Origin: Phenylobacterium deserti | GTDB taxonomy: Bacteria > Pseudomonadota > Alphaproteobacteria > Caulobacterales > Caulobacteraceae | Assembly: GCA_945874825.1 (NCBI GenBank) | Contig: CAMCIK010000004.1 | Location: forward strand, 4,606-68,605 | Length of the DNA: 64,000 nt | Direction: 5' to 3' | In this document: one piece after another, positions 9,873 through 35,779 of the stretch | Layout of the letters: every line of letters starts with the position of its first letter | Position numbering within the stretch: the first letter of the stretch is position 1 | Notes under the pieces: generated by a model | The model's input: the letters and a program-made list of their open reading frames with translations, nothing else | Told to the model about the DNA's origin: nothing | Databases searched by the model: none | Made by a program: the position numbers and the translations under genes

Positions 9873-9999
9873 GTGGCCTCCTTGGAAGGCGACCATCCTA
9901 GACCCCCGCGCACCCCGGCGCCTATGGCTTGAAGGGGCTTTTCAACCCCGGGAGGGAGAGGCATAAAGTGTTTACTTTCTTTCAGTTGGGAGGCTGAAA

Positions 10000-20071: not shown

Positions 20072-22828
20072 GTGAGCATCTTCCAGCGTCTCTTCGGCTC
20101 CTCAAATGACCGCAAGGTCAAGGCCCTTGCGAGCAGGGTGGCGAAGATCAACCGCCTCGAGCCCAGCACCCAGGCGCTGAGTGACGAGGCACTGAGGGCC
20201 AAGACCGTCGAGTTCCGCGAGCGCCTCGGGCGCGGCGAGACCCTGGACCAACTGCTGGAGGAAGCCTTCGCCGTGGTGCGAGAGGCGTCCAGGCGGGTGC
20301 TCGGCCAACGCCACTTCGATGTCCAGCTGGTCGGCGGGATCGTCCTGCATGAGGGCGGTATCGCCGAGATGCGTACCGGCGAGGGCAAGACCCTCGTCGC
20401 CACCTCGCCGGTCTACCTGAACGCCCTGGCGGGCAAGGGCGTCCATGTCATCACCGTCAACGACTACCTCGCCCAGCTACACGGCAACTGGATGGGCCAA
20501 GTCTACCGCTTCCTCGGCCTGTCTGTCGGCGTCATCGTGCACGGTCTCAGCCAGGGCCAGCGCAAGGCGGCCTATGCGTCCGACATCACCTACGGCACCA
20601 ACAACGAATTCGGCTTCGACTATCTCCGGGACAACCTCGTCTACGAGCTCGACGAGATGGTGCAGCGGGGCCACAACTTCGTCATCGTCGACGAGGTGGA
20701 CTCGATCCTGATCGACGAGGCGCGCACCCCCCTCATCATCTCGGGACCCACTGAAGACCGCTCGGACTTCTACCGGACCGTCGACGCCCTGGTGAAGGAA
20801 CTGATCAAGGATCCCTCGACCTTCGACCACGACGAGAAGCAGAGGCAGGTCATCCTCACCGAGGAGGGTGCCGAGACCGTCGAGGAGATGCTGAAGGCGG
20901 GCGATCACCTGGAGGAGGACACCACCGGCCTCTACGACGCCGCCAACGTTACGGTCGTGCACCACGTGAACCAGGCCCTGAAGGCCAACATCCTCTACAC
21001 CCGCGAGAAGGACTACATCGTCCGCTCGGGCGAGGTGGTGCTGATCGATGAGTTCACCGGCCGGATGATGCAGGGCCGGCGTCTGTCCGAGGGCCTGCAC
21101 CAGGCCATCGAGGCCAAGGAAGGCGCGCACGTCCAGCCCGAGAACCAGACCCTCGCCTCGGTCACCATCCAGAACTATTTCCGCCTTTACACCAAGCTGT
21201 CGGGCATGACGGGCACGGCCGCGACCGAGGCCCAGGAATTCGCCGATATCTACAGGATGGACGTCAGCGAAATCCCGACCAACCGGCCGGTCGCGCGGAT
21301 CGACGACGATGACGAGGTCTATCGCACGGAAGCCGAGAAGAACCGCGCCATCCTCAAGCAAATCGAGGACTGCTATGTCCGCGGCCAGCCCATCCTGGTG
21401 GGCACGGTCTCGATCGAGAAGTCCGAGTCCCTTTCGACCCTGCTGAACGCCCACGCCTACGAAGTCGACGGCAAGGCTCGGAAGGGCATTCCGCACAATG
21501 TCCTGAACGCCCGGTATCACGAGCAGGAGGCGGTGATCGTCGCCGACGCGGGCATCCCCGGAGCCGTGACCATTGCCACCAACATGGCCGGACGGGGCAC
21601 CGACATCCAGCTGGGCGGCAATATCGACATGCGGGTCCTGCGCTGGCAGGACGAGCAGCGCGGCCTGGGCATTGAGGTGACCCCGGACCAGGTGATCGCC
21701 CGCAAGGCCGAACTCGAGTCCGAGATCGCGGGTCTCAAGGCCCAGGCCCTCGCGGCCGGCGGCCTGTTCGTGCTGGGAACCGAGCGCCACGAGAGCCGGC
21801 GGATCGACAACCAGCTGCGCGGCCGGACCGGCCGCCAGGGCGACCCGGGGCGGTCCAAGTTCTTCCTGTCCTGTGAAGACGACCTCCTGCGCATCTTCGC
21901 CGGCGAGCGTCTGGACTCCATCATGCGCACCTTCGGGGTCCAGGACGGCGAAGCCATCACCCACAAGTGGCTGAACAACGCCATCGCCACCGCCCAGAAG
22001 CGCGTCGAGCAGCGCAACTACGAGATCCGCAAGAACCTCCTGAAGTACGACGACGTGGTCAACGACCAGCGCAAGGCCGTGTTCGAGCAGCGCGCCGAGT
22101 TCATGGCCGATGCGGACCTCTCGGACGTCGTGGCCGAGATGCGCCGCGACACCATCGCCGACCTGGTCCGCCGGCACCTGCCGCCCAAGGCCTATGCCGA
22201 GCAGTGGGATGTGGAGGGCCTGGCCGAGCAGACCCAGTCGATCCTCGGCCTCGACGTACCCGTCGCCCAGTGGGCGGCCGAGGAAGGCATTGCCAACGAG
22301 GAGATCGAGGAACGCCTACTGGCCGCCTCCGACCTCCGCGTTCAGGAACGCGAGGCCCTGATCAGCCCCGCCCAGATGCGGATGATCGAAAAGAGCTTCC
22401 TGCTCCAGACCATCGACCTGCAGTGGCGTGAGCACCTGACCCACCTGGACCACCTGCGCAACGTGATCGGCCTGCGCGGATACGGCCAGCGGGACCCGCT
22501 GAACGAGTACAAGACCGAGGCCTTCTCCCTGTTCGAGCGGCTGCTGGTGGACCTGCGCCACAACGTCACCCGCTGGCACATGACGGTCGAGTTCCAGTTT
22601 GCGGACCCCGAGCCGCCGCCCACCGCCTTCCAGGAGATCCACCTCGATCCCCTGACCGGCGAGAATGCCGCGCAGATGGGAATCCTGCCGGACGGCCTGT
22701 CGGTGGATCAGAGGCAGGCCCTGCCCTTCTCAGCCCTGCCCGACGGCTGGCAGCAGACGGGGCGCAACGCCGCCTGTCCCTGCGGCTCAGGCAAGAAGTT
22801 CAAGCACTGTCACGGGGCGCTGGTCTGA
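20072..22828 (+). CDS. secA: preprotein translocase ATPase SecA
   Basis: 918 aa. N-terminus [14 protein letters not shown]-like motor motifs, and C-terminal zinc finger [14 protein letters not shown]. Confidence 0.96.
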
Positions 22829-22834
22829 GGTCAC

Positions 22835-22855
22835 TGGCCCCGGTGATGCCGGGGC
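22835..22855 (+). terminator. hairpin after secA
   Basis: GGCCCCGG-tgatg-CCGGGGCC immediately after the stop, followed by TTCCT. Confidence 0.5.
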
Positions 22856-22930
22856 CTTCCTCACCTCTCAGATCGAACAGGCTGACGCCTTCCACCGACG
22901 CTCCGGCTTCACCGACCTGTAGCGACGGCT

Positions 22931-23317
22931 TCAGGCCCTTGAGCCGTCCCCGCCAAACACCGCCTCGTAGGTCTCGGGCCTGAAGCCGAGCACCCGCCGA
23001 TCCCCCAGATCGAGCAGGGGGCGTTTGATCATCGAGGGCTGGGCCACCATCAGGGCTATGGCCTTGGCCGCGTCGAGATCAGTCCGGTCGGCTTCGGGCA
23101 GTTTGCGGAAGGTCGTGCCTGCGCGGTTCAGGACCTTTTCCCAGCCCAGTTCCTCAACCCACTGACCCAGACGATCAGCGTCAATGCCTTGGGTCTTGTA
23201 GTCATGAAAGTCATAGGCGATGCCTCGGTCCGCCAGCCAGGCGCGGGCCTTGGCCACCGTGTCGCAGGCCTTGATGCCATAGAGGGTGGCGGCGGGGATG
23301 AGGGTGGGCAGTCGCAT
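22931..23317 (-). CDS. ArsC/Spx/YffB family reductase-like protein
   Basis: Only the last 128 codons of track ORF 22931..23917 look real. MRLPT...LYGIKACDT...FHDY...MIKRPLL is the YffB/ArsC-family pattern. Confidence 0.8.
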   Translation of the reverse strand: MRLPTLIPAATLYGIKACDTVAKARAWLADRGIAYDFHDYKTQGIDADRLGQWVEELGWEKVLNRAGTTFRKLPEADRTDLDAAKAIALMVAQPSMIKRPLLDLGDRRVLGFRPETYEAVFGGDGSRA

Positions 23318-23340
23318 CAGGGAGCTCCGGGGGGATGGTC

Positions 23341-23718
23341 TCAGGCCGTGGTCACGAAGGTCTCGGATTCGATCATCCACTGACCCGTGACCCGGCGCCA
23401 GACCGCGAGGTAGGGACCCGACTGGGACGGAGCATCCTTCCAGCTCGCCGTCCAGCGGCCCTGCTCGGCGGCGCGATCTCCCGCTGCATCCACCTCGATG
23501 TGCTCGGGCGTGCGGACATAGCCGCCGAAGCCGGGGTCTGCGAACTGGGCGGCGAAGGCAGAGAGGATGGCGTCTCGGCCGGTGATGACCGATCCGTCGC
23601 CGGCGATGACCACCGCCGCGGGCAGGAAGACCGGCCCGAGGCGCGCGGCCTCCCGCCCGGCGATGAACCGGTTGCTCAGCCGCCGCCGGGCGCGAATGGC
23701 GTCTTCGGGGGGGATCAC
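23341..23718 (-). CDS. SnoaL-like / DUF4440 (NTF2-fold) protein
   Basis: 125 aa. The pattern ...G.W.ASW....G.YLAVWRR..G.W.I is typical of DUF4440. The start overlaps the upstream stop. Confidence 0.6.
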   Translation of the reverse strand: MIPPEDAIRARRRLSNRFIAGREAARLGPVFLPAAVVIAGDGSVITGRDAILSAFAAQFADPGFGGYVRTPEHIEVDAAGDRAAEQGRWTASWKDAPSQSGPYLAVWRRVTGQWMIESETFVTTA

Positions 23719-24704
23719 GACCCGAAGGGCTCGACCACGACCGTGCCGGCCTTGGTCCCGGACTCCACCTGCTCATGGGCAGCCGCGCAGTCCGCCAGGG
23801 CATGGCGGCCGGCCACGGGCAGGAGCCGGGCACCCGTGGAGATCCATTGCAGGATGTCGGCCTGGGCCCGGCGGCGGGCCTCGTGCGGGCTGACCGGCAG
23901 GTAGACGCCGTGGACATTGAGGTTGAGGCGCATCAGCTCCCCGGCCGGGACCGTCGGCGAGGGCTCGCCCTTCGTCGCGTAGAAGGCCACTGACCCATTG
24001 CCCTTCATGCAGGCCAGGGTGGCGGCCAGGTTGCCGCCGAAGTCCACGTCGACCACATGGTCCACCCCGGCGCCGCCAGTGAAGTCCCGGACCCGGGCGG
24101 CGACATCCTCCGAGCGGTAGTTGACGACCAGGTCGGCGCCCGCCGCCTGCGCCCTGGCTGCCTTGGCCTCGCTGCTGACGGTGGCGATGACCGTGGCTCC
24201 CGCCCACCTGGCCAGCTGGACGGCGTAGAGGCCCACCGCACCGGCACCCCCGGTGACCAGGACGGTCCGTCCCTGCACGGGTCCGGCGACGAAGACGCTG
24301 CGGTGGGCGGTCATGCAGGGAATGCCCAGGGTCGCGCCCTCTGAGAAGGATACGGCGTCGGGAAGGGGCGTCACGAGGTCGGCGTCGAGCTCGATGTATT
24401 CCGCCGCCGAGCCAAAGGCCCGGCCGTTCCTCTGACCGTTGTAGAACCAGACCCGGCGGCCGAGCCAGCGGGCCGGCGTCTCCGGGCCTACGGCCTCGAC
24501 CACTCCGGCACCGTCGCTGTTCGGGATGATGCGCGGATAGGCCATGGGGGCGGGACCGGCCCGCATGCCGGCGTCCGAGGGGTTGACCCCGGAGGCGTGG
24601 ATGCGGATCAGCACCTGCCCCCGGCCAGGGCTCGGGGTGGGAACCTCGCCGTGCTGCAGGACCTCCCGGGCAGGGCCGGTGCGCTCGTACCAGACCGCCT
24701 TCAT
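23715..24704 (-). CDS. NADPH:quinone oxidoreductase (MDR, zeta-crystallin type)
   Basis: 329 aa. GVNPSD and the VLVTGGAGAVG Rossmann motif. Confidence 0.85.
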   Translation of the reverse strand: MKAVWYERTGPAREVLQHGEVPTPSPGRGQVLIRIHASGVNPSDAGMRAGPAPMAYPRIIPNSDGAGVVEAVGPETPARWLGRRVWFYNGQRNGRAFGSAAEYIELDADLVTPLPDAVSFSEGATLGIPCMTAHRSVFVAGPVQGRTVLVTGGAGAVGLYAVQLARWAGATVIATVSSEAKAARAQAAGADLVVNYRSEDVAARVRDFTGGAGVDHVVDVDFGGNLAATLACMKGNGSVAFYATKGEPSPTVPAGELMRLNLNVHGVYLPVSPHEARRRAQADILQWISTGARLLPVAGRHALADCAAAHEQVESGTKAGTVVVEPFGS

Positions 24705-24911
24705 GACCCGCTCCAGAGTTCCGTCATCAGGCCTTCCTCCCGTGTTCCCGGGTCAGACTAGCGAAGGTCACCGGCGAGGGCGAGGCCCGGGCAGGACCGC
24801 CACGTTCACACAGGAGACAGGGCCAGCCAGACCGCCCCGGATCCCGCCTGGCCGCCCGGCTGAAGCGGAAGGATGACAGGGCACCCCGCGAGGGCTTAGG
24901 ACAGGCCCTGA

Positions 24912-25541
24912 ATGTCCCACACCTTCACCCCCGACTTCCGCGCCCGGATCGCGAAGGCCTGTTCGGCCTTCCCGCGTATCGTCCATGCCGGAGGGGACCT
25001 GAAGCGCGCGGCGGTGGCCCTGACCCTGACGGCGGCGGACGACGGCTCGGGCCAGACCGCCTTCCTCCTCACCCGACGGGCCGCGAGCCTGCGGGCGCAC
25101 TCCGGCCAGTGGGCCCTGCCCGGCGGTCGCCTGGACCCGGGCGAGACCCTGGAGGAGGCCGCCCTGCGGGAGCTCTCGGAGGAGGTCGGCCTCGACCTGC
25201 CGACGAGCGAGATCCTGGGCGTTCTGGACGACTATCCCACCCGCTCCGGCTATGTGATCACCCCCGTAGTGGCCTGGCTCCAGGACGCTTCGGCCCTGAG
25301 GCCCAACCCGGATGAGGTGGCCTCGACCCACCTGATCCGGCTGGACTACATCGCCGCCCCGGATGCGGTGGACTTCGAGACCATCCCCGAGAGCGACCGC
25401 CCCCTGATCCGCCTCCGGATCTCGGAGGAACACCACATCCACGCACCGACGGCGGCGGTGGTCTACCAGCTGCGCGAGCTGGTCGCCGGCCGCGTCACCC
25501 GGGTAACGGAGCTGGAACAGCCCGTCTTCGCCTGGCGCTAG
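24912..25541 (+). CDS. Nudix hydrolase (CoA pyrophosphatase-like)
   Basis: 209 aa. Nudix box GGRLDPGETLEEAALRELSEEVGL. Confidence 0.8.
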   Translation: MSHTFTPDFRARIAKACSAFPRIVHAGGDLKRAAVALTLTAADDGSGQTAFLLTRRAASLRAHSGQWALPGGRLDPGETLEEAALRELSEEVGLDLPTSEILGVLDDYPTRSGYVITPVVAWLQDASALRPNPDEVASTHLIRLDYIAAPDAVDFETIPESDRPLIRLRISEEHHIHAPTAAVVYQLRELVAGRVTRVTELEQPVFAWR

Positions 25542-25562
25542 GGGGCGGCGGCCAGCTGCCGA

Positions 25563-25577
25563 GTTACGGTGACACTG
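25563..25577 (+). repeat. direct repeat copy A (GTTACGGTGACACTG)
   Basis: Exact 15-mer, repeated at 26026-26040. It sits right after the Nudix stop, where GC drops by eye. Confidence 0.8.
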
Positions 25578-25829
25578 TAGGAGGTAGATCATCACTCAAG
25601 GTATCGAAACTTGTTGTGCGGCAGGCTTGGGACAACCACGCGCGCAAGTCTGGCCATCGGCGGCGCTCCCCAGGGTTAAGGAACTCAGTCGCTCAGGACC
25701 GGGGTTTCGTACAGCGTCACCGTACCCCCCCATGGCCGAGACGGTTTGAAACCCTGTCACGCAGCAGATGTTCTGAGGGCCAAAATCTGCGAGTCTGTGA
25801 CCACCCGATTCCCATTCGAGGACGCTGTC

Positions 25830-26000
25830 ATGAAGCCTCCCGTCAAGCGGCTCTCCGATCTCACGGGGGGCAGTCCAAAGCCCGGGACATTTGCGAAGCC
25901 GACGCCCAAGGTGTCGCGCATGAAGCCGGGAAAGAAGCTGACCGACGCTGAAAAAGCCGCGTTTCTGGCCTCGCGCCCCGACCTCACCGGAAAGTCCTGA
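25830..26000 (+). CDS. small Lys/Pro-rich hypothetical protein (56 aa)
   Basis: Internal ATG of track ORF 25746..26000, preceded by GAGGA. No family recognised and coding status uncertain. Confidence 0.3.
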   Translation: MKPPVKRLSDLTGGSPKPGTFAKPTPKVSRMKPGKKLTDAEKAAFLASRPDLTGKS

Positions 26001-26025
26001 GCTTCAGACCAGGGCCGCTATCAGG

Positions 26026-26040
26026 GTTACGGTGACACTG
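26026..26040 (+). repeat. direct repeat copy B (GTTACGGTGACACTG)
   Basis: Exact copy of 25563-25577, 463 bp downstream. Confidence 0.8.
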
Positions 26041-26049
26041 CATGAAATA

Positions 26050-26060
26050 GAGTTACGGTG
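26050..26060 (+). repeat. partial third repeat copy (GAGTTACGGTG)
   Basis: 11-nt match to 25561-25571, 10 nt after copy B. Confidence 0.6.
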
Positions 26061-26217
26061 TTGAGCTAAACCTGCCTTGCCAGAGATGGCCGGTCAGTTT
26101 GAGCCTGGCGTGGATGCGGGTGCTGTAGCTGAGACGGCGGGGTCATCCCGGCGGGCACCGGTCAGGCGGAAGAGGGGTTCCATGGGCCCAGACTCGCCCG
26201 GTTCGCGCCCTCGGAAA

Positions 26218-27030
26218 CTAGACCTCGCTGAGGAAACTCCGGACAGCGAGAAGGTAGGCCGGGAAGTTCTCCCGGCGGACATTGTGCCCTGCCCCCTCTA
26301 TGCGAAGCGCCCGAAGGTCGGTGTTGATCTCGCGGGCCTCCCTCGCCTCGGCCGCTCCGACCAGGCTTCCCCTTTCAGCATCTCCGTAGATGAGGAGGCT
26401 CGGCGCCCGGATCCGGCGGATGTCCGCCTGCCAGGGGGTGGGAAGGATCGGAAGGGCGTTCCTGGAGACCTGCTGCTTCGAGGCGATCCAGGCGGGGAAC
26501 TCCTGCGTTTCCCAGGTCGGCGACTGCCGTCGCCCGAGGGCCATCAGCTCGGCTTCGGTCATGTCGTGTAACTGCCTCACCTGGTCCTTGAACCGCGCCA
26601 GCCGCTTGGCGGCCGTCTCGGCATCCATGGGCGGGACCAGGGGTGGGTCCTCGAGGATGACGGCGCGGATGAGGTCGGGGAATTCCGCCGCACAGGCGGC
26701 GGTCGCCCGGGCGCCCATCGAGTGGCCCATGGCGATCACACCCGACAGCTCAAGGGCCCTGATAGCCTCGGCGATGTCCCGGCCGGGCATGTCCGGGGAG
26801 ATTCCCGCCTCGCCAGGCCGCGAGCTTGCCCCATGTCCCCGGGCGTCCAGCAGGATGAGGTCGTACTCGGGGGACAGGGCCTCGGCCAGGCGAGCCCAGC
26901 AGAGGCCGTTGTCGGTCAGGCCGTGTGAGAGGACGATGGGCGGCCCCCCGCCTCCGGTCCGGTGATAGGCCAGCCGCCCTCCGGTGACCTCGACCTCGCC
27001 GGAGGGCCAGTCCAATCGATTGGTCACCAT
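26218..27030 (-). CDS. alpha/beta hydrolase
   Basis: 270 aa. HGLTDN oxyanion region and nucleophile elbow GHSMGA. Last gene of the selB-side gene string. Confidence 0.85.
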   Translation of the reverse strand: MVTNRLDWPSGEVEVTGGRLAYHRTGGGGPPIVLSHGLTDNGLCWARLAEALSPEYDLILLDARGHGASSRPGEAGISPDMPGRDIAEAIRALELSGVIAMGHSMGARATAACAAEFPDLIRAVILEDPPLVPPMDAETAAKRLARFKDQVRQLHDMTEAELMALGRRQSPTWETQEFPAWIASKQQVSRNALPILPTPWQADIRRIRAPSLLIYGDAERGSLVGAAEAREAREINTDLRALRIEGAGHNVRRENFPAYLLAVRSFLSEV

Positions 27031-27151
27031 GCATACGCCTCGGGAGCTGCGCCACAGGCTGGGAAGATCGCATCGAGCCGGACCAGGGCGGACTCGTCAA
27101 GGTCCAACCCCGGTGCCTGCAGGAGGGCGGCGAACTGGTCCCGGCGCCCGG

Positions 27152-27670
27152 TCAGAGGGTCAGGGCCGCCACGACCTGGTCGACAACGGCCTGCGCCTTG
27201 GCGCGCATTTCGTCATCGGTGGCATCCTGGATCGGGTGATCCACCAGAAGGTAGCGCGCACCCTCCATGCCCAGCGCCCGGCGCTGGACCTCGGCGGCCT
27301 CAGCGAACTCGCTGGAGGCGATGGAGACGGCGGGAAGCCCCTGGATTTCGAACCATACAGTGTCGTGCAGACTGCACGTCGTGCAGGATCCTCAATCGGC
27401 GAGGGCTTCCACCAGGACGCTGCACTCCGCCTTGATCTTCAGCCGCAGGTCCGTGGGACAGGGCTTTGTGAAGGTCGGCTTGGCGTAGCGTCGGATCTCA
27501 TTGTCCGGGAAGCGGGCGGCCAGCAGGCGCTCCAGCTCGTCCAGGAGCACATTACCCCGGGGCTTGCTGATGTCCAGAAGGCCGATCACGCCCGGGATGC
27601 TTCCTGTTCGTGGAGTGATCTGGCGCTCGACGGGCACACGCTCGTCGGTCGGATCCAGGATTGTGGTCAT
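27152..27670 (-). CDS. UGSC-motif selenoprotein (172 codons, Sec at codon 93 encoded by UGA 27394..27392)
   Basis: Track ORF 27392..27670 stops at TGA. The same frame stays open for 79 more codons (GSCTTCSLHDTVWFEIQGLPAVSIASSEFAEAAEVQRRALGMEGARYLLVDHPIQDATDDEMRAKAQAVVDQVVAALTL) to TGA 27154..27152. GGAGGA SD lies 6 nt before the ATG. Hairpins follow the UGA, and selB, tRNA-Sec and selA are adjacent. Confidence 0.75.
27362..27394 (-). promoter_or_regulatory. UGA plus candidate bacterial SECIS hairpin(s)
   Basis: mRNA reads UGA GGAUC CUGCAC GAC GUGCAG UCUGCACGAC. Two alternative stems are possible: CUGCAC/GUGCAG (3-nt loop), or CGUGC/GCACG with loop AGUCU carrying a G-U about 22 nt after the UGA. 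Confidence 0.55.
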
Positions 27671-27701
27671 CGATGTCCTCCGAATTCCGGAATTGAGGCT
27701 A

Positions 27702-29288
27702 TCAGCAGTCGATCTTCCTGGAAACGACCGTTGAACCCATGGCGCCCGTGACCCAGCCGTGGAAGGCGGCCGAGAACTTCCCCGCCTCAGAACCCGCCAC
27801 GACGATGTGGATGTACTTGCCGTCGGCGAACTTCGGCACCGGAGTCGCGAGCATCTCCGCAGTCATCTTGGCGGCGGAGGCGACCGGGATCCCGGCGCCG
27901 GAGACGTCGTTGGACACCATCTCCCTCAGCGGCCTTGAGGTGACCTCCTGGATGCGGGCGCGGAGCCGGTCCTTGGGATAGGCCCCGTCGACGGTCAGCG
28001 TGTTGATATGCTCCGGACAGACCACCAGCAGGGCGTCCACGGGCATCCGGTGGATCTTGGGCAGGAACATGCCCTCCAGGCCCAGGCCCAGGGTCCCGGC
28101 GATCTGGTCGGGCCGGCGGGACTCCTGGTCGACGATCTGCACCGGGCCACTGGTCATGGCGAAGGCGGTGACTACCGAGTCCTCGCGCTGGAAGCCACGC
28201 TCCACGTGGAGGGGATCCCAGGGCGAGCCCTCCTCCCACTCGGCGAAGCACATGGTGAACTTCATGGGGCTGGAAAGGGTCGAGCGGTCGACGCCCCCGG
28301 GACGGGCCCCGCCAAGGTTGCGGACGACCAGGCGAAGCGCGCGGCCGATGGTGGCGTTGGCGCGGTTGCCGGCGCCCAGGGCGGCCAGCTTCATGTTCAT
28401 GCCGATCCGATGCCGGATCGGGCCGTTGACCACCAGGACGGGCGAGGCCCCCATGGTGGTGGCATTGACCCCATGCATGTTGAATTCGTCCGTACACACC
28501 GCCTCCAGGGCGGCGATCACCACGGGCAGGTATTCCGGCCGGCATCCGGCCATCACGGCGTTGATGGCCACCTTTTCCACCGTGGCCGGGGCCATGTTGG
28601 GCGGCACGATGGCGACAATGTCCTGCGGGTCCCGTGTCGTGCCCGCCAGCATGCGGATCACCCGCTCCGGCGTCGGCGGGACCAGGGGCAGGCCATCGCT
28701 GAAGCCCTGGTCGAACAGGAACTCGTCGATGTCGTCGGAACCGGCGATCTCGATGCGGCGAGCCCGGATCGGACTGCCCTCGGCCTCGGCCACCAGACGG
28801 TCATGGATGCCGGGATCGAGATGCTTGGAGCCGCACCCCGGCCGCCAGTCCGGCAGTCCGGTCCAGTCCACCTGGGGCACCGGCGTCCCGAGCGCCTCGG
28901 AAACCTGCGCGGACAGGGCCTGCCACTCGGCCTTGACGAAGCCCTCCATCACAGGGGCCGTCGCCCCCTCGGTGCCCGTCCAGAAGACTGCCGGAACGCT
29001 CTCGAAGTCCCAGGCCAGGGAGGTCCGCAGGGCACCGTCGTCGAGGATGGGCAGGGTCAGGCCGTGGCGATCGCGCAGGATCTCGGCTCCGTCCCGGGCC
29101 TGGGCGACCATCCAGACGTCGGCATGTTCGCCCCAGGCCTGATGAAAGGCCTCCAGCAGGGGCGCAACGAGGTTGCAGGTGGCGCAGTCCTCCTTGGCAA
29201 AGCAGATGAGGCTCGGCCGACCCGTGGGAAAGCTCCGCGATGTGCCGCCGAGGTCCTGGAGCGTGAAGGCGGGCGGGGTGTCGGTCAT
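27702..29288 (-). CDS. thioredoxin-fold (TlpA/redoxin-like, CxxC) domain fused to a ~390-aa domain of unknown function
   Basis: 528 aa. The N-terminus FTLQDLGG...SLICFAKEDCATCNLVAPLLEAF fits the redoxin pattern with C-A-T-C. I cannot assign the remainder (..DGLPLVPPTPERVIRML..AINAVMAGC..NMHGVNATTMG..) to a family. Confidence 0.8.
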   Translation of the reverse strand: MTDTPPAFTLQDLGGTSRSFPTGRPSLICFAKEDCATCNLVAPLLEAFHQAWGEHADVWMVAQARDGAEILRDRHGLTLPILDDGALRTSLAWDFESVPAVFWTGTEGATAPVMEGFVKAEWQALSAQVSEALGTPVPQVDWTGLPDWRPGCGSKHLDPGIHDRLVAEAEGSPIRARRIEIAGSDDIDEFLFDQGFSDGLPLVPPTPERVIRMLAGTTRDPQDIVAIVPPNMAPATVEKVAINAVMAGCRPEYLPVVIAALEAVCTDEFNMHGVNATTMGASPVLVVNGPIRHRIGMNMKLAALGAGNRANATIGRALRLVVRNLGGARPGGVDRSTLSSPMKFTMCFAEWEEGSPWDPLHVERGFQREDSVVTAFAMTSGPVQIVDQESRRPDQIAGTLGLGLEGMFLPKIHRMPVDALLVVCPEHINTLTVDGAYPKDRLRARIQEVTSRPLREMVSNDVSGAGIPVASAAKMTAEMLATPVPKFADGKYIHIVVAGSEAGKFSAAFHGWVTGAMGSTVVSRKIDC

Positions 29289-29333
29289 GGATCCGTCCTC
29301 AGGGTCGCAAGGCTACCGGCCCGGAGGCCGGGC

Positions 29334-29428
29334 TGGCGGAGGTGGATGGGAATCGAACCCACCACACGCCGGTGAGGCGTGTCACCGGTTTTGAAGACCG
29401 GGGAAGCCACCAGACTCCAGTCACCTCC
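29334..29428 (-). tRNA. selC: tRNA-Sec (anticodon UCA)
   Basis: 95 nt: GGAGGTGACTGGAGTCTGGTGGCTTCCCCGGTCTTCAAAACCGGTGACACGCCTCACCGGCGTGTGGTGGGTTCGATTCCCATCCACCTCCGCCA. Anticodon loop CTTCAAA (TCA = 29394..29392), long variable arm ACACGCC/GGCGTGT, GTTCGATTCC T-loop, encoded CCA. Confidence 0.9.
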
Positions 29429-29441
29429 ATCGCCCGCAACA

Positions 29442-31382
29442 CTAGTGCGGGATCGGCGGCGTACCGAAGCGCTTTCTTTGGGTGACGACCTGGCGGGAGT
29501 CCCCACGACGGACTGTATCCCCCCGGGAGTCGAGGAACTCCAGGGCCGGGACGATGAACTTGCGGGAGGTGGAAAGGGCCGCCCGGGCCTCGCCGGTAGT
29601 GAATTCCGCCGGCGGCGGGAAGGCCGCCTCCAGGTCCGAAAGGGCGGCGTCCAGGGCCTCTATGTGGAAGACCAGGGTCTGGCGCAGGGCGTGGTTGCGC
29701 AGGGAGACCAACCGTCCGGACTCCACCAGCAAGCCGAGGAGAACTGCGGACTCCCCCTCGGCGACGAGGCCGGCGGCGTCCGGCGGGTTCATGCCGCCCT
29801 CCCGCAGGGCGGTCTCGATCTCCCCGAGGCGGGACAGCTGGGCCGGCGACAGGGCGGCGAAGGGGTCATGGTCCTTCAGGGCCGCCTGGCCGCGCACGAT
29901 CCGGATCCCGCCCTCGGCGACGAGCCGACCCTCCACATGGGCGATGAGGTCCCGGGACAGGATTCGTTGCAGGCCGCCACGAAGGGCACCGAGGGCGACG
30001 AAGGCCCGGGTCGGCTGGGCCCGGTGGGCGTCGGCCAGCCGGTCGAGATAGGCCTGAGCGGCCGCCTCCACGGCGGACTCCTGTGCAAAGAGGCCGTCGT
30101 CGAGGCGAACAAGCCTCTCAGCCAGTCGCGAGCGGACCTCTTCGATGGGCGCGCGCGAAAGACAGGCCGCCTCGGCCACGGACACCGCACCGCCGTCCCG
30201 CCCGGCGAGGGCTGCGGCGATGTCCTCCAACCCGCCCTGTACGACAGCGAGCAGGAGGTCGCGGCGGGCCTCCAGGGTCCGGGCCCGGAGCTGGGGGGCG
30301 ACGGGGTCCAGCACCCGGCCGCCGCCCAGGGTCCCGGCGGGCGAGGGCCGGCGGAGCAGGAGGCGCTGGCCGGCATGGGCGGGGACGGGGCCACTGAAGC
30401 GGAGCTGGACCAGACCCGAAGATCCGGGCTCCAGTGGGGCCCCGCCAATGAGGCGCGCCCGGGCAAGGTCCTGGCGTGCGCCCCAGAGCACGCGCACCTC
30501 GTCCCCGGATCGAAGTGGCCGGGCAGCCTCCGGCGAGAGATCGACCTCCAAATCCACCCTCACTGTCGGCGGAAAGCTGCCGGGGCTGCAAAGGACCTCG
30601 CCGACCCTCACCTCGTCCGGCGAGACCCCGCGCAGGGCCGCCGCGGCCCGGCCGCCGGCGGGTGCCGTCGGGACCGCCTGGCCATGGACCTGCAGCTGGC
30701 GCAGGTGGACCGTGCGGCCGGAGGGCTCCAGGACCGCCTCGTCCCCCACTTCGAGGTCCCCACCCTGCAGGGAGCCGGTAACCACGGTTCCCGTTCCGGC
30801 CAGGCTGAAGACCCGGTCGAGGGGCAGGAAGGCGCCGGGCAGGCGCTCAGGCGGGGGGGTCCGGAGGGCCAGGGCGTGGATCTCGCGGTTGAGGGTCCCA
30901 AGCCCCTCCCCGGTCACGGCCGAGCAGAAGACGACGGGTGCCGTCGCCAGGAAGCTTTCTTCCAGTTCGGCCATCAGCCGGGCCCGGAGGTCAGTGCGCG
31001 CCTCCGGCGGGACGAGGTCAGCCTTGGTCACGGCCACCAGACCGTCCCTGAGGCCCAGGAGGCTAGCGATCCTGAGATGCTCGCGGGTCTGCCGGCCGAA
31101 GCCCTCAACCGCGGAAACCACCAGCAGGACTGCCCGGGCACCGGCGGCGCCCATGACCATGGCGCGGATGAAGTCCTCGTGGCCGGGAGCGTCCAGGAAG
31201 TCGACGTCACCGTCAGGGTCCTCGCGGAAGGCGAAGCCCAGGGCGATGGAGAGGCCCCTCGCCTTCTCCTCCGGCAGCCGGTCCGTCTCCATGCCGGTCA
31301 GGGCGCGGACCAGGGCCGTCTTGCCGTGGTTGACGTGCCCGATCACCGCCAGGCCAAGGGGTGGAGGCGGGGCGGCGGTCAC
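29442..31382 (-). CDS. selB: selenocysteine-specific translation elongation factor SelB
   Basis: 646 aa. GTPase motifs GHVNHGKT, DAPGHEDF and TKAD, followed by long winged-helix-type C-terminal extensions. Adjacent to tRNA-Sec and selA. Confidence 0.9.
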   Translation of the reverse strand: MTAAPPPPLGLAVIGHVNHGKTALVRALTGMETDRLPEEKARGLSIALGFAFREDPDGDVDFLDAPGHEDFIRAMVMGAAGARAVLLVVSAVEGFGRQTREHLRIASLLGLRDGLVAVTKADLVPPEARTDLRARLMAELEESFLATAPVVFCSAVTGEGLGTLNREIHALALRTPPPERLPGAFLPLDRVFSLAGTGTVVTGSLQGGDLEVGDEAVLEPSGRTVHLRQLQVHGQAVPTAPAGGRAAAALRGVSPDEVRVGEVLCSPGSFPPTVRVDLEVDLSPEAARPLRSGDEVRVLWGARQDLARARLIGGAPLEPGSSGLVQLRFSGPVPAHAGQRLLLRRPSPAGTLGGGRVLDPVAPQLRARTLEARRDLLLAVVQGGLEDIAAALAGRDGGAVSVAEAACLSRAPIEEVRSRLAERLVRLDDGLFAQESAVEAAAQAYLDRLADAHRAQPTRAFVALGALRGGLQRILSRDLIAHVEGRLVAEGGIRIVRGQAALKDHDPFAALSPAQLSRLGEIETALREGGMNPPDAAGLVAEGESAVLLGLLVESGRLVSLRNHALRQTLVFHIEALDAALSDLEAAFPPPAEFTTGEARAALSTSRKFIVPALEFLDSRGDTVRRGDSRQVVTQRKRFGTPPIPH

Positions 31383-31509
31383 CGGATGTGTCCCGGATGG
31401 AGGCGGCGCATGAAGACTCCCTACGTCGAACCGGGGCCGAGGTCATCCGCCTCGCTTGCCCGGCGTCGCCCCGCCTCCCTATAGTCCGGACCGGAGAGGG
31501 AGACGCGTC

Positions 31510-32970
31510 GTGACGCTGAGGACCCCGAAGGCCGCCCGACCGGACCCCCGCCGCCGCCTCCCGGCCGTGGGCACCCTCTGTGATGACCCCGTCGCCCGGC
31601 CGCTGAAGGCCCGGTACGGCGCCGCAGCCCTGACCCGCGTCGTCCGCGCCGTCCTGGCCGAGGCCCGGACCCGCCTCGCCGCCTACCCCGACGTCCTGCC
31701 GACGACCGGTGCCCTCCTGGAAGCCGTAGAGGCGCGGTTGGCCGAGGGTGTCCGCGAGACCCTCTTCCCGGTGATCAACGCCACCGGCGTGGTGATCCAC
31801 ACCAATCTCGGCCGGGCACCCCTTGCGCCGGAGGCGATGGCGGCGGTGGCGGCGGCGGCGGGCTACGCCAACCTGGAGCTCGACCTCGACACCGGCCGGA
31901 GGTCCTCACGACAGGCGCACCTCGATCCCCTGATCGCCGAGATGACCGGTGCCGAGGCGGGAATGGCGGTGAACAACTGCGCAGGCGCCGTGCTGCTGGC
32001 CCTGGCCGCAGTGGCGAAAGGGGCACCGGTCATCGTCTCCCGGGGCGAGCTTGTGGAGATTGGCGGCGGCTTCCGCATACCGGACGTGGTGGCCCAGAGC
32101 GGCTCGCGCCTGGTCGAGGTCGGGACCACGAACCGGACCCATCTGCGCGACTACGAGATGGCCCTGGCCGACCATCCGGACGCCCGGGTCCTCCTGCGCA
32201 CCCACCCCAGCAACTTCCGGATCCTGGGCTTCACCAGTGCCCCGTCCCTGGAGAGCCTGGCCCACTTCGCCCATGCCCACGGTCTTCTGCTGGTGGAAGA
32301 TCTGGGGGGCGGCGCCCTCGTGGACCTCTCGCCGTTTGGCATCCCGGACGAGCCGACCGTCCAGGCCAGTCTCACGGCGGGCGTGGACCTGGTGCTCATC
32401 AGTGGGGACAAGCTGCTGGGCGGGCCCCAGGCCGGCATCGCCGCCGGGCGCCGGGCCCTTGTCGACCAGCTGGAGGCCCACCCCCTGGCCCGGGCCCTGC
32501 GGCTGGACAAGCTGTCGGCGGCCGCCCTCGCCGCCACCCTGCGGCTCTATCGCCCACCGTCCGACCCCTTCCAGCGGATTCCCGTCCTGCGCCTGCTGGC
32601 CCAGGACGCCGGAACGCTGAGTGCCCGGGCGAAGGACCTCAGGGCGCGGGTCGAAGGTCTTGCGGACCTCGAGACGGAGATCATCGACACCGAGGGCTTT
32701 GCCGGCGGCGGGGCCCTGCCCATGCGGGCCCTGCCTGGCCGGGCCCTCGCCCTCAGCCACCTGCGTTTCAGCGCAGAAGACCTCGCGCTTCGCCTGCGCA
32801 CCGGACCAACCCGGGTGCTGGGACGGATCGAGCAGGACCGGGTCCTCATCGACCTGCGGACCGTCGACGACGCAGAGGTTCCGGCCCTGGCCGAGGCGAT
32901 CGGCGCGGCGGCGGGGGAAATCAGCGACCTTGTGCGACGTTGTCCCGAGGTGCCCCCTTCCCTCGCCTGA
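31510..32970 (+). CDS. selA: L-seryl-tRNA(Sec) selenium transferase SelA
   Basis: VINATGVVIHTNLGRAPL and the PLP-lysine region ISGDKLLGGPQAG. Track ORF starts at TTG 31456. GTG 31510 has GGAGAGGGAG 8-10 nt upstream, so the start is uncertain. Confidence 0.9.
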   Translation: MTLRTPKAARPDPRRRLPAVGTLCDDPVARPLKARYGAAALTRVVRAVLAEARTRLAAYPDVLPTTGALLEAVEARLAEGVRETLFPVINATGVVIHTNLGRAPLAPEAMAAVAAAAGYANLELDLDTGRRSSRQAHLDPLIAEMTGAEAGMAVNNCAGAVLLALAAVAKGAPVIVSRGELVEIGGGFRIPDVVAQSGSRLVEVGTTNRTHLRDYEMALADHPDARVLLRTHPSNFRILGFTSAPSLESLAHFAHAHGLLLVEDLGGGALVDLSPFGIPDEPTVQASLTAGVDLVLISGDKLLGGPQAGIAAGRRALVDQLEAHPLARALRLDKLSAAALAATLRLYRPPSDPFQRIPVLRLLAQDAGTLSARAKDLRARVEGLADLETEIIDTEGFAGGGALPMRALPGRALALSHLRFSAEDLALRLRTGPTRVLGRIEQDRVLIDLRTVDDAEVPALAEAIGAAAGEISDLVRRCPEVPPSLA

Positions 32971-33059
32971 GGTGTGGGGACATATGCTCGGCAGGGACCT
33001 GGTCCCAGGCCGCTTCGTGCCGATCACGGGATCAGAGGGGCGTTGTGCCAGAATCCGGG

Positions 33060-34244
33060 ATGTTCCCGCCGACCCGCCAAGCCGCCCTGGAGCGTCTCGC
33101 CGGCTTTGTCCCGGCGGCGGGACGCGCCTATGCGGAGGGGCGAAACCTGGACCCGGGCCCCGGTGAACCGGGCGCGGTCTCGCGGCTTTCCCCCTACCTT
33201 CGCCACAGGGTGATCTCAGAGGCCGAGGTGGTCGATGCGGTCCTGCAGGCCCAGGGTTCCGCCGGTGCGGACAAGTTTATCCAGGAGGTGTTCTGGCGCA
33301 CCTACTGGAAGGGCTGGCTGGAAATGCGGCCTTCCACCTGGTCGCGGTTCCTCGAGGCCCGCGACCGCCAATGGGATGGCCTGGCGGACTCGCGCGCCCT
33401 CGCCGACGCCGAGGCGGGCAGCACCGGCATCGAGGGCTTCGACGACTGGGCCCGCGAACTCGCCCAGACCGGATACCTGCACAATCATGCGCGCATGTGG
33501 TTCGCCTCGATCTGGATCTTCACCCTGCGCCTGCCCTGGGCCCTGGGGGCGGATCTCTTCCTCCGCCGGCTCGTCGACGCCGACCCGGCCAGCAACACCC
33601 TGTCCTGGCGGTGGGTCGCGGGCCTCCAGACCCCGGGAAAGACCTACCTGGCGACCCGGGAGAATATCGCCCGCTTCACCGGGGGCCGCTTTGCGCCCTC
33701 GGGCCTGGCGACGCAGGCCCCTCCCCTGGTGGAGCCCGCGCCCGAACCCCCGGCGGGCCTTCCTTCCGCCGCCAGCACCCCGCCTCCGGGACCCTACCTG
33801 TTGCTGACGACGCCGGAGGACCTGACCCCCGACCTCGGAGGGATCGACCCGGCGAGGGCGGCCGCCGCGGTCGTCACGCCGGATCCCCGCCTGTCGTTTG
33901 GCGAGACCGCCCGCGAGTTCATGGCCGGCGCCGCGATGGACGCGGCCGATCGCCTGGCCGGGCGAGTGGAGGGGCCTGTAACCCTCCTGGACCGCCTCGA
34001 CGCTGGGTCCCTGGTCGCGGCAGCCCAGGCGGCGCAGGTGCGGACCCTTGTCACTCCCTATGCGCCTGTAGGCCCCACGGCGGACGCCCTGGCGCAGGCC
34101 GCGCGGGGCCTTGAGGCCGAGGGCCTGCACCTCATCCAGGTCCGCCGGGAATGGGACACCCGCTTCTGGCCCTACGCGACGGCGGGCTTCTTCGCCTTCC
34201 GCAAGCAGATTCCAGCCTTGCTGGAACAAGAGAGGTCCCGGTGA
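33060..34244 (+). CDS. photolyase FAD-binding-domain protein (photolyase-related, atypical domain order)
   Basis: ATG 33060 within track ORF 32940..34244. SRLSPYLRHR...FWRTYWKGW...YLHNHARMWFASIW...NTLSWRWVAG is the photolyase FAD-binding domain, placed at the N-terminus. Confidence 0.65.
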   Translation: MFPPTRQAALERLAGFVPAAGRAYAEGRNLDPGPGEPGAVSRLSPYLRHRVISEAEVVDAVLQAQGSAGADKFIQEVFWRTYWKGWLEMRPSTWSRFLEARDRQWDGLADSRALADAEAGSTGIEGFDDWARELAQTGYLHNHARMWFASIWIFTLRLPWALGADLFLRRLVDADPASNTLSWRWVAGLQTPGKTYLATRENIARFTGGRFAPSGLATQAPPLVEPAPEPPAGLPSAASTPPPGPYLLLTTPEDLTPDLGGIDPARAAAAVVTPDPRLSFGETAREFMAGAAMDAADRLAGRVEGPVTLLDRLDAGSLVAAAQAAQVRTLVTPYAPVGPTADALAQAARGLEAEGLHLIQVRREWDTRFWPYATAGFFAFRKQIPALLEQERSR

Positions 34245-35779
34245 GCCGTCCCCTGCAGGTCGTCTGGTTCAAGCGCGACCTGCGCATCGCCGACCACCGC
34301 CCTCTGGCCCTCGCCGCCGAAGCCGGGCCGGTGCTGCCCCTCTACATTGTTGAGCCAGGGCTCTGGGCCCAGGCGGACGCCTCAGGAAGGCAGTGGGCCT
34401 TTGCAGCGGAATGCCTCGGCGAGTTGGCGGCTTCGCTGGCCCAGCTGGGCCAGCCCCTGCGGGTCGAGGTCGGCGAGGCGCTGAAGGTGCTGGGCCGGAT
34501 TCACGAGCGTCACGGTATCGCCGGCCTCTGGAGCCACGAGGAGACTGGAAACGGCTGGACCTACGCTCGGGACCTGGCCGTTGGCGCCTGGTCGAAGGCG
34601 GCTGGTATCCCCTGGCGCGAGGAACGCCAGTTCGGTGTGATCCGCCGCCTGAAGTCGAGGAATGGCTGGGCCCAGGCCTGGGACCGGGACATGTCCAGGC
34701 CGCTGACGCCCTCGCCCGAGGCGCTTGTTCCCCTCGGCGGCGACTGGCCGGGTCGCATTCCATCAGCGGCCAACCTCGGCCTTGCGTCCGATCCCTGTCC
34801 TCATCGCCAGAAGGGCGGGCGCAGTGCTGCGCTGGAGGTTCTGGACAGCTTCCTCTCCTGGCGCGGCCGCGACTACCGCCGGGAGATGTCGAGCCCGCTC
34901 ACGGCCTACGGGTCCAGTTCGCGGCTCTCGCCCCACCTCACCTGGGGAACGATCTCCATGCGGGAAGTCGCCCAGGCCACCTGGGCGCACCAGCGGGGGC
35001 TCCGGACGTCGAGCGCACCCGACGCCGGACTGTGGCGGGGGTCCCTGGCCTCTTTCTCGGGACGCCAGCACTGGCGTTGTCACTTCGTCCAGAAGCTGGA
35101 GGACGAGCCCCGAATCGAGTTCGAGAACCTGCACCGCGCCTACGACGGCGTGCGCCCCAGCCAGGCTGATCCTGACCGCCTAGAGGCCTGGAGCCAGGGC
35201 CTGACCGGCTATCCCTTCCTCGACGCCTGCATGCGGGCGCTGGACGCCCATGGCTGGATCAACTTCCGCATGCGCGCCATGCTGATGTCCTTCGCCAGCT
35301 ATCACCTCTGGCTTCCCTGGCGGGAGAGCGGCCTGCACCTGGCGCGGAAGTTCGTGGACTATGAGGCGGGAATCCACTGGCCCCAGGTACAAATGCAGTC
35401 CGGCACGACGGGCATCAATACCCTCCGGATCTACAACCCCGTAAAGCAGGGCCACGATCAGGATCCCAAAGGTACCTTCGTCCGGGCCTGGGTTCCCGAG
35501 CTTGCGGCCGTCCCGGACGCCTTCGTCCATGAGCCCTGGCGATGGGAGGGGGCGGCGGACCTTGCCTATCCCGCCCCGATCGTCGAGAATGCTTCCGCGA
35601 TGCGGGCGGCCCGGGAAGCCCTTCACGCTCTGCGGCGCGACAGCCGCCACAAGGGCGCGGCACGGGTCATCGCCGCCCGCCACGGAAGCCGAAAGTCCGG
35701 TTTGCCAGGGGCGGGGGACCGCCGGCGGGGCCGGGCCAAGCCCGCTGAAGGCGTCCAGCTGTTGCTGAACCTCGAATAG
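34241..35779 (+). CDS. cryptochrome/photolyase family protein
   Basis: GTG 34241 overlaps the upstream stop (GTGA). VVWFKRDLRIADHRPL N-terminal alpha/beta domain, later SRLSPHLTWGTIS and FVDYEAGIHW..QMQSG motifs. Confidence 0.8.
   Translation: MSRPLQVVWFKRDLRIADHRPLALAAEAGPVLPLYIVEPGLWAQADASGRQWAFAAECLGELAASLAQLGQPLRVEVGEALKVLGRIHERHGIAGLWSHEETGNGWTYARDLAVGAWSKAAGIPWREERQFGVIRRLKSRNGWAQAWDRDMSRPLTPSPEALVPLGGDWPGRIPSAANLGLASDPCPHRQKGGRSAALEVLDSFLSWRGRDYRREMSSPLTAYGSSSRLSPHLTWGTISMREVAQATWAHQRGLRTSSAPDAGLWRGSLASFSGRQHWRCHFVQKLEDEPRIEFENLHRAYDGVRPSQADPDRLEAWSQGLTGYPFLDACMRALDAHGWINFRMRAMLMSFASYHLWLPWRESGLHLARKFVDYEAGIHWPQVQMQSGTTGINTLRIYNPVKQGHDQDPKGTFVRAWVPELAAVPDAFVHEPWRWEGAADLAYPAPIVENASAMRAAREALHALRRDSRHKGAARVIAARHGSRKSGLPGAGDRRRGRAKPAEGVQLLLNLE

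Follow-up and report, generated by a model that had tools for sequence, protein, structure and literature searches.

A UGSC-family gene with a predicted Sec-decoded UGA codon and its probable upstream partner gene in Phenylobacterium deserti

Introduction

The gene described here lies on a 64,000-nucleotide stretch of Phenylobacterium deserti DNA (assembly GCA_945874825.1, contig CAMCIK010000004.1, positions 4,606 to 68,605 of the forward strand; called the window in the following), and its closest described relatives are the selenoproteins of the UGSC family. The literature prototype of this family is the Hyphomonas neptunium protein ABI76733.1 (PMC1976440, PMC13188914), and a "UGSC-containing protein" was reported from this species and from metagenomes as a selenoprotein without an assigned function (PMC1976440). 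UGSC was among the major families of the GOS selenoproteome, with 255 selenocysteine (Sec) forms and 21 Cys forms, and a thioredoxin (Trx)-like fold and a redox role were proposed for it (PMC2398784). In a survey that covered over 5,200 sequenced organisms, UGSC was counted in 26 (PMC5029168), and a review from 2026 lists the family under NF041046, with ABI76733.1 as the example, as still uncharacterised (PMC13188914). UGSC is thus an already known family that has appeared in selenoproteome surveys since 2007-2008 and has both an NCBIfam and a Pfam model, and the novelty of a further UGSC gene is therefore low. Function, partner and structure are not given for the family in this literature.

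A second point of reference is GrdB of glycine reductase, which is described with a UxxCxxC motif (PMC13188914). In the window, the UGSC gene is preceded on the same strand by a gene for a 528-residue protein, here called X528. The best overall explanation of the locus is a UGSC selenoprotein gene with a Sec-decoded UGA codon whose product forms a redox module with X528, and we regard this explanation as very probable. What remains of interest is the role of the functionally uncharacterised UGSC-X528 module and its tight linkage to the genes of the Sec machinery in Alphaproteobacteria; further leads from the locus are a near-obligate partner that is fused to UGSC in Cys forms, and a flavodoxin-like predicted fold.

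Results and discussion

The UGSC reading frame

The features of the gene and its immediate surroundings are as follows.

27152..27670, minus strand: predicted UGSC-family selenoprotein gene, 172 codons and a TGA stop, ATG start at 27670
27392..27394, minus strand: in-frame UGA, predicted Sec codon 93, motif U-G-S-C-T-T-C; TGA is kept at the aligned column
27676..27681, minus strand: Shine-Dalgarno-like GGAGGA, 5 nt 5′ of the UGSC ATG, read directly from the sequence
26218..27030: alpha/beta hydrolase gene, the next gene after UGSC, start at 27030

At this locus the mechanical list of open reading frames (ORFs) holds just 27392..27670 on the minus strand, with 92 amino acids. The frame consists of these 92 codons (...VLVEALAD), the UGA, and 79 sense codons, which add up to 172 codons. 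The sense stretch after the UGA begins GSCTTCSLHDTVWFEIQ and ends ...AALTL, followed by the TGA at 27152-27154; the N-terminal letters of this 79-codon half are also given as GSCTTCSLHDTVWFEIQG, with AALTL at the C-terminal end. The spacing between the UGSC stop and the start of the hydrolase gene is 121 nt (27031-27151). All these coordinates and counts agree with those of a preliminary description of the locus, which had been made from the sequence and had read the two halves as one selenoprotein gene. The GC content at third codon positions was 0.88 over the last 50 codons ahead of the UGA and 0.82 over the first 50 behind it, so that the downstream stretch is coding-like, as the earlier statement of normal codon usage implied. 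The residues around the UGA read U93-G-S-C96-T-T-C99 in the translation, again as described. The downstream half has neither a start codon nor a ribosome-binding site of its own. No other in-frame TGA candidate with a redox-like motif was found in a scan of the window.

For profile searches, Cys was put in place of Sec at the UGA. The joined 172-residue sequence matched NCBIfam NF041046, "UGSC family (seleno)protein", with 168.5 bits (cutoff, 125; E = 9e-50) over residues 28-171, and Pfam PF24696, "UGSC family", with 165.5 bits (cutoff, 25; E = 1.6e-48) over residues 3-171 and model positions 1-171 of 172. Therefore, the family match covers both sides of the UGA. The HMMER search proposed in the preliminary description thus assigned the protein to UGSC above curated cutoffs, and the family it had named from metagenomic selenoproteomes is indeed listed there (PMC1976440, PMC2398784). 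Full-length profile match, U-G-S-C at the same column, a length of ~170 residues and an alphaproteobacterial lineage are shared with the prototype. The loci of Hyphomonas show the identical arrangement selA-selB-tRNA-Sec-X528-UGSC at ~70% identity. Nothing essential separates the gene from the family: it is an ortholog, 97% identical to that of a public metagenome-assembled genome (MAG; locus L002).

The Sec column in relatives

A scan of genomes, one per species, yielded at least 581 stretches encoding UGSC relatives, of which the best 80 formed the comparative set. In all 80 a TGA was present at the aligned column, and residues 1-170 of 172 could be aligned with 62-97% identity. The closest group comprised Phenylobacterium and other Caulobacterales (up to 97% identical); the other groups were Hyphomonadaceae/Rhodobacteraceae, Pseudomonadales and other Gammaproteobacteria, and Dehalococcoidia (Chloroflexota). 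Both halves of UGSC are thus conserved across Alphaproteobacteria, Gammaproteobacteria and Chloroflexota in these 80 loci. A more distant sample consisted of 53 diverse full-length representatives of clusters at 50% identity, and about 44 of them carried D-C-G-S-C, with Cys at the Sec column. The alignment of Cys or Sec at this column, which the preliminary description had named as a check, was therefore found in close and distant relatives; homologs continue past the UGA and the downstream half is conserved. The third Cys of U-x-x-C-x-x-C is confined to a subfamily; D-C-G-S-C-T-S-W is the sequence in the majority of distant relatives.

In the protein collection, about 100 of the 120 best matches were fragments of 94-105 residues ending in ALAD. 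Together with the 92-residue entry of the ORF list, they would suit a UGA that is a genuine stop, i.e., a 92-residue gene and, behind it, the remnant of a split gene or pseudogene, which would be untranslated or translated separately. The 79 downstream codons are, however, conserved as protein in 80 loci of three phyla, both family models extend over the downstream half, the two halves form one chain in Cys-type relatives, no separate translation start is present for the downstream half, and the genes for tRNA-Sec and SelB lie nearby (see below). A genuine stop is very improbable on these grounds. The fragments are explained by gene callers cutting the same gene at the UGA: UGSC genes are cut at 92-94 residues, and public protein collections are full of such products.

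A few full-length close protein matches carried G, W, R or C at the Sec column. Where the DNA was readable, the variants were single-base changes of TGA, namely, GGA in locus L001 (6277-6279) and TGG in locus L082 (about 603-605). In both loci the sequence of the hairpin described below was still present. They are recent Sec-loss variants or sequencing errors. Since the true Sec forms enter protein databases cut short at 94 residues, such rare variants are over-represented there. The W, G or R at this column in some homologs might suggest that the UGA is read as Trp or Gly by an alternative code or near-cognate suppression. This reading is even less credible than a genuine stop: GGA and TGG are genuine single-base changes of TGA, the genome is alphaproteobacterial with ~69% GC, and such decoding would not account for the hairpin or for the Sec machinery next to the gene. 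Moreover, TGA is the ordinary stop of both X528 and UGSC itself, which excludes a recoded genome.

A SECIS-like hairpin downstream of the UGA

In bacterial genes of the E. coli fdhF type, the selenocysteine insertion sequence (SECIS) is a hairpin in the coding sequence just 3′ of the UGA, with G-U in the apical loop; in fdhF it starts 11 nt after the UGA. The corresponding features of the UGSC gene are as follows.

27353..27386, minus strand: SECIS-like stem-loop within the coding sequence, recognized by comparative pairing and frozen synonymous sites
27364-27378, minus strand: upper stem-loop CGUGCA-GUC-UGCACG, starting 13 nt after the UGA
27380-27386 paired with 27353-27359, minus strand: lower stem, with covariation at pair 15-36

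The alignment covered 57 nt from the UGA without gaps and contained 81 sequences, 66 of them distinct. RNAalifold gave a single consensus structure, a 6-bp stem of columns 17-22/26-31 (CGUGCA/UGCAYG) with a 3-nt loop, G-U-N. This upper stem was paired in 81/81 sequences. One of its pairs was GC in 41, GU in 23 and AU in 2 of the distinct sequences, and the two AU cases represent a compensatory double change, Thr ACG to ACA plus His CAC to CAU. The lower helix pairs columns 9-15 with 36-42. Its pair 15-36, which joins two third-codon positions, occurred as CG (25), GU (17), GC (5) and AU (4), and its covariation score was reached in 0 of 500 shuffles, a measure that relatedness among the sequences can inflate.

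Synonymous sites within the hairpin were frozen: Thr+5 was ACG in 79/81 sequences, Cys+6 UGC in 81/81 and Ser+7 AGU in 81/81, corresponding to codon entropies of 0 to 0.17 bits. Outside the hairpin the median was 1.46 bits over 70 conserved degenerate codons, none of which had zero entropy, and the Cys three codons before the frozen Cys+6 was encoded by UGC in 33 and UGU in 48 sequences. This freezing is the strongest evidence for the SECIS-like hairpin. A deltaproteobacterial Sec form from a distant subfamily (D-U-G-S-C-S-S-W-C-I-H-D) has a hairpin of other sequence that is equally placed and by itself very stable (z = −5.3), with the loop U-G-U-A-U.

Both hairpins named in the preliminary description can form, but CGUGCA/UGCACG is better supported than CUGCAC/GUGCAG, which showed no compensatory change and was broken in two sequences in which the CGUGCA hairpin compensates. 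A lower-stem register taken from the minimum free energy structure of the window (columns 4-13 with 36-45) was likewise rejected, as it lacked covariation, unlike columns 9-15 with 36-42. The element shares with the fdhF SECIS the position in the coding sequence 3′ of the UGA and the apical G-U; it differs in starting at 13 nt instead of 11 nt, in its 6-bp upper stem and 3-nt loop (GUN), in the absence of an evident bulged U and in having no Rfam SECIS match. By the established bacterial pathway, SelB with Sec-tRNA(Sec) would be recruited by this hairpin 13 nt past the UGA, and UGA93 would be decoded as Sec.

Genes of the Sec machinery

Three components of this pathway are encoded within 4.1 kb upstream of UGSC.

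29334..29428, minus strand: tRNA-Sec (selC), anticodon UCA, found with ARAGORN and Rfam RF01852 (77 bits; gathering score, 47), 45 nt upstream of X528
29442..31382, minus strand: selB, Sec-specific elongation factor (Pfam GTP_EFTU, SelB-wing_3, Beta-barrel_SelB)
31456..32970, plus strand: selA, selenocysteine synthase, divergent from selB (Pfam SelA, E = 8.9e-130, and Se-cys_synth_N)

The tRNA-Sec was the sole match of the Rfam scan at gathering thresholds. On the minus strand no terminator-like site was found downstream of selB, between tRNA-Sec and UGSC; the only one lay inside selB. In 36 loci of the alphaproteobacterial type, tRNA-Sec was located just upstream of the X528-UGSC pair, at a median distance of 65 nt, with selB and selA ahead of it; the pair and selA-selB-tRNA-Sec shared the strand.

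The full-length profile matches, the Sec- and Cys-type relatives, the conserved hairpin and the adjacent tRNA-Sec, selB and selA bear out the earlier proposal of a selenoprotein gene overlooked by the ORF track. Judged from sequence comparison, 27152-27670 on the minus strand almost certainly represents one gene for a 172-residue UGSC-family protein whose UGA93 would be decoded as Sec.

Eight alphaproteobacterial loci also contained an Ndh-SelD fusion gene of ~720 residues (pyridine nucleotide-disulfide oxidoreductase plus selenophosphate synthetase with C-G-G-C-G-A-K). In seven (L019, L021, L022, L028, L029, L030 and L037, about 8610-10820) it followed directly downstream of UGSC, which gave a complete selA-selB-selC-X528-UGSC-selD cluster; in L041 (3941-6103) it was located upstream on the opposite strand. 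Within the window, the sole tblastn match to this fusion was an Ndh-like pyridine nucleotide-disulfide oxidoreductase gene (44385-45461, plus strand), 32% identical to the Ndh half and without an attached SelD domain. A contig attributed to an acidobacterium, Candidatus Sulfopaludibacter sp. SbA3 (L033), also carried a selA-selB-tRNA-Sec-X528-UGSC locus. This locus matched the Hyphomonas locus L031 exactly in its SECIS region and almost fully in its layout; the contig may be mis-binned or recently transferred.

The probable partner protein X528

X528 and its C-terminal domain have the following positions.

27702..29288, minus strand: X528, 528 amino acids, stop TGA at 27702-27704, 31 nt before the UGSC start
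27705-28739, minus strand: C-terminal domain of X528, ~345 amino acids, confidently modelled

X528 had no family match in Pfam and NCBIfam (AhpC-TSA remained below threshold with E = 0.043), and a PDB sequence search gave nothing significant (best E = 0.38, a thioredoxin). Its own family is very large, as 7,996 of 8,000 scored candidate clusters at 90% identity passed E <= 0.001, and the named homologs at NCBI are annotated as "TlpA family protein disulfide reductase". The AlphaFold2 (AF2) model, with a pLDDT of 84.9, comprised an N-terminal domain of ~135 residues with a ResA/TlpA/StoA-like thioredoxin fold (TM of the Foldseek target, 0.77-0.83) and the motif C35-A-T-C38, a linker with the conserved Cys152, and the C-terminal domain. 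With TlpA, ResA and StoA the protein thus shares the thioredoxin fold and the CxxC motif, but it differs by the fused ~345-residue domain of no known family and by its sub-threshold Pfam scores. The sequence shows no evident hydrophobic N-terminal segment that could serve as a signal peptide or membrane anchor, and X528 is therefore probably cytoplasmic.

For the C-terminal domain there was no match in Pfam, NCBIfam or among PDB sequences, the latter searched also with a profile of the domain, and a protein-database search with this profile returned mostly the same close relatives. Its invariant motifs are G-x-x-D-G-L-P, A-x-N-A-x-M-A-G-C249, N-G-P, I-G-R-A-x-R and K-x-x-x-C347-x-x-E. All 50 matches listed by Foldseek for the whole X528 model fell on the thioredoxin-like N-terminal domain, and none on the C-terminal domain.

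Of the 73 loci whose upstream DNA was long enough, 71 had X528 directly upstream of UGSC on the same strand, at a median distance of 30 nt. In six proteins (P0293, P0298, P0338, P0360, P0314 and P0389), Cys-type UGSC domains were fused N-terminally to the X528 C-terminal domain; these are probably the "UGSC/Unknown_1 fusion" of the GOS paper (PMC2398784). In a deltaproteobacterial MAG, a Sec-type UGSC gene overlapped the start of a gene for the standalone C-terminal domain. We consider it likely that X528 and UGSC act together.

In the deltaproteobacterial MAG (L083/L084, 1-6068), the Sec-type UGSC gene and the standalone C-domain gene follow molybdenum hydroxylase genes of the xanthine-dehydrogenase/CO-dehydrogenase type (Fer2, FAD_binding_5, MoCoBD) on the same strand and are followed by MFS and EamA transporter genes. 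In seven gammaproteobacterial loci (L054, L056, L058, L060, L061, L065 and L081; ~700 bp before X528) and in L001 (3806-4510), a gene of the RraA-like aldolase/decarboxylase family was located directly upstream of X528 on the same strand. The gammaproteobacterial neighbours nearby comprised genes for RraA-like proteins, acyl-CoA dehydrogenase, CaiB-type CoA-transferase, MFS transporters and amidohydrolase. Beyond X528 and the sel genes, no neighbour family was common to all lineages.

The position of the pair behind selA-selB-tRNA-Sec on the same strand in the 36 alphaproteobacterial-type loci and the Ndh-SelD fusion alongside UGSC in eight loci could indicate that X528-UGSC serves selenium metabolism, for example by reducing selenium or trafficking it to SelD. 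In Gammaproteobacteria and Chloroflexota, however, the pair is kept without a sel gene within 8 kb and stands amid genes of acyl-CoA metabolism; in the deltaproteobacterial MAG it is found with molybdenum hydroxylase genes. Co-inheritance explains equally well why a client gene clusters with the machinery that decodes it, and a role in selenium metabolism appears unlikely.

Predicted structure and proposed redox role

The AF2 model of the Cys-type homolog P0010 (pLDDT, 90.4) consisted of five beta-alpha units. Cys99, the equivalent of Sec, directly followed beta-strand 3 and stood at the N-terminal end of helix 3, and the second Cys of the U-G-S-C motif was one turn further along this helix. 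By this model, the position of U93 and C96 would correspond to the geometry of a redox-active selenol/thiol pair. Foldseek searches of the PDB gave weak flavodoxin-like matches with TM values of at most 0.5 (flavodoxin, the B12-binding domain of MttC, lumazine synthase and TIR domains). None of the 50 best matches was a Trx-fold protein; all were flavodoxin-like or Rossmann-like. A PDB sequence search with UGSC gave nothing significant (best E = 1.2). Consequently, the Trx-like fold proposed in the GOS paper is not supported. The thioredoxin-fold selenoproteins with UxxC or CxxU (Trx-like, Prx-like, DsbA-like and SelW-like) also have Sec-x-x-Cys at the N-terminus of a helix after a beta-strand, whereas UGSC is predicted to form a five-unit beta-alpha sandwich of the flavodoxin-like type.

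These data bear on the question of whether UGSC might be a free-standing general thiol/selenol oxidoreductase, such as a thioredoxin-like antioxidant, with X528 next to it by chance. U-x-x-C is typical of redox selenoproteins, the GOS proposal of a Trx-like fold and redox role (PMC2398784) would fit, and two loci of Dehalococcoidia had no X528 within 8 kb. The flavodoxin-like predicted fold, the absence of Trx folds among the 50 best PDB matches and the adjacency of X528 in 71 of 73 loci speak against this, the repeated fusions of UGSC with the C-terminal domain point to an obligate partnership, and we regard a free-standing enzyme as unlikely, if slightly less so than a function in selenium metabolism.

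The preliminary description had likened the spacing of the motif to that of glycine reductase protein B. UxxCxxC is in fact described for GrdB (PMC13188914), and the GrdB-like reads of the GOS data show a similar local pattern, beta-strand, U-x-x-C, helix. GrdB/PrdB and UGSC also have in common a Sec subunit, a second protein and a thioredoxin-type reductant. If UGSC were a distant homolog of GrdB/PrdB, it could take part in Sec-dependent reductive C-N/C-X cleavage, with X528 as the substrate-activating subunit. Homology was not detectable, however, and the resemblance holds for the motif only. In a Pfam scan of UGSC at E <= 10, PF24696 was the sole match and the GRDB family (PF07355), which the preliminary description had suggested looking for, was not found. 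When the UGSC alignment was compared by hhalign with a GrdB-like sequence from GOS, itself a PF07355 match, the probability was 0.13, a weak comparison since the template was a single sequence, and a PDB sequence search with the GrdB-like read gave nothing significant. A GrdE/PrdA-like partner was not recognized either: X528 matches no Pfam or NCBIfam family, the GrdE/PrdA proproteins included, and none was seen in the scan of the other proteins encoded from 20072 to 35779. In addition, UGSC has 172 residues compared to 347 positions in the Pfam GRDB model alone, the third Cys is missing from most of the UGSC family, and the host is an aerobic alphaproteobacterium rather than an amino-acid-fermenting anaerobe. 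Homology to GrdB/PrdB is thus quite improbable, less probable than either of the two roles weighed above; by sequence, the likeness appears to be one of motif, perhaps of working principle, and not of membership.

We return to the module of UGSC and X528. Most likely, UGSC and X528 form a two-gene module in which UGSC is the redox subunit that carries Sec. Based on the modelled geometry and the partner, U93 and C96 may cycle through a selenenylsulfide. The substrate or reaction site would be located in the C-terminal domain of X528, which contains the invariant Cys249 and Cys347; UGSC would act on or with this domain, and the thioredoxin-like CxxC domain would re-reduce the system. The specific relay from U93/C96 via a C-domain Cys to the CxxC is proposed only tentatively. 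With similar reservation, X528 and UGSC could be seen as the two components of a selenoenzyme that has not been described before and whose Sec subunit is flavodoxin-like; in Alphaproteobacteria it would be carried in a self-contained selA-selB-tRNA-Sec-X528-UGSC cassette, sometimes with Ndh-selD, in which UGSC might be the main reason why the Sec trait is kept.

Several observations weigh against parts of this explanation. The hairpin of the window alone was no stabler than shuffled sequences (z = −0.6 to −0.8 in this GC-rich coding sequence); overall, single-sequence z-scores ranged from −0.2 to −0.8 and are uninformative in GC-rich coding sequence. A permissive Rfam scan of 27300-27430 gave no SECIS family, only chance matches with E > 2. 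Because of these two results, the SECIS assignment rests on the comparison of sequences. The alternative CUGCAC/GUGCAG hairpin, which joins columns 9-14 to 18-23, was 94% paired as well. selD was not found in the 64-kb window, either by motif search or by tblastn with the Ndh-SelD fusion. The structure was predicted for a homolog 51% identical to the window protein, not for the window protein itself, and from a 20-row alignment. Finally, the neighbours are lineage-specific (sel genes, acyl-CoA metabolism, molybdenum hydroxylases) and therefore point to no single substrate.

Other genes of the window

Right after selA, two consecutive photolyase/cryptochrome-like ORFs (FAD_binding_7) were present on the plus strand, 32940-34244 and 34151-35779. 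The domain match of the first is only partial, and as listed this ORF begins before selA has ended. On the minus strand, the 328-residue ORF 22931-23917 contains an ArsC-family domain in its last ~110 residues only. As this ORF overlaps a zinc-type alcohol dehydrogenase gene (23715-24704), the genuine ArsC-like gene is likely to be a good deal shorter. In metagenomes, ArsC is among the selenoprotein families; an in-frame TGA was not seen in the ORF 22931-23917.

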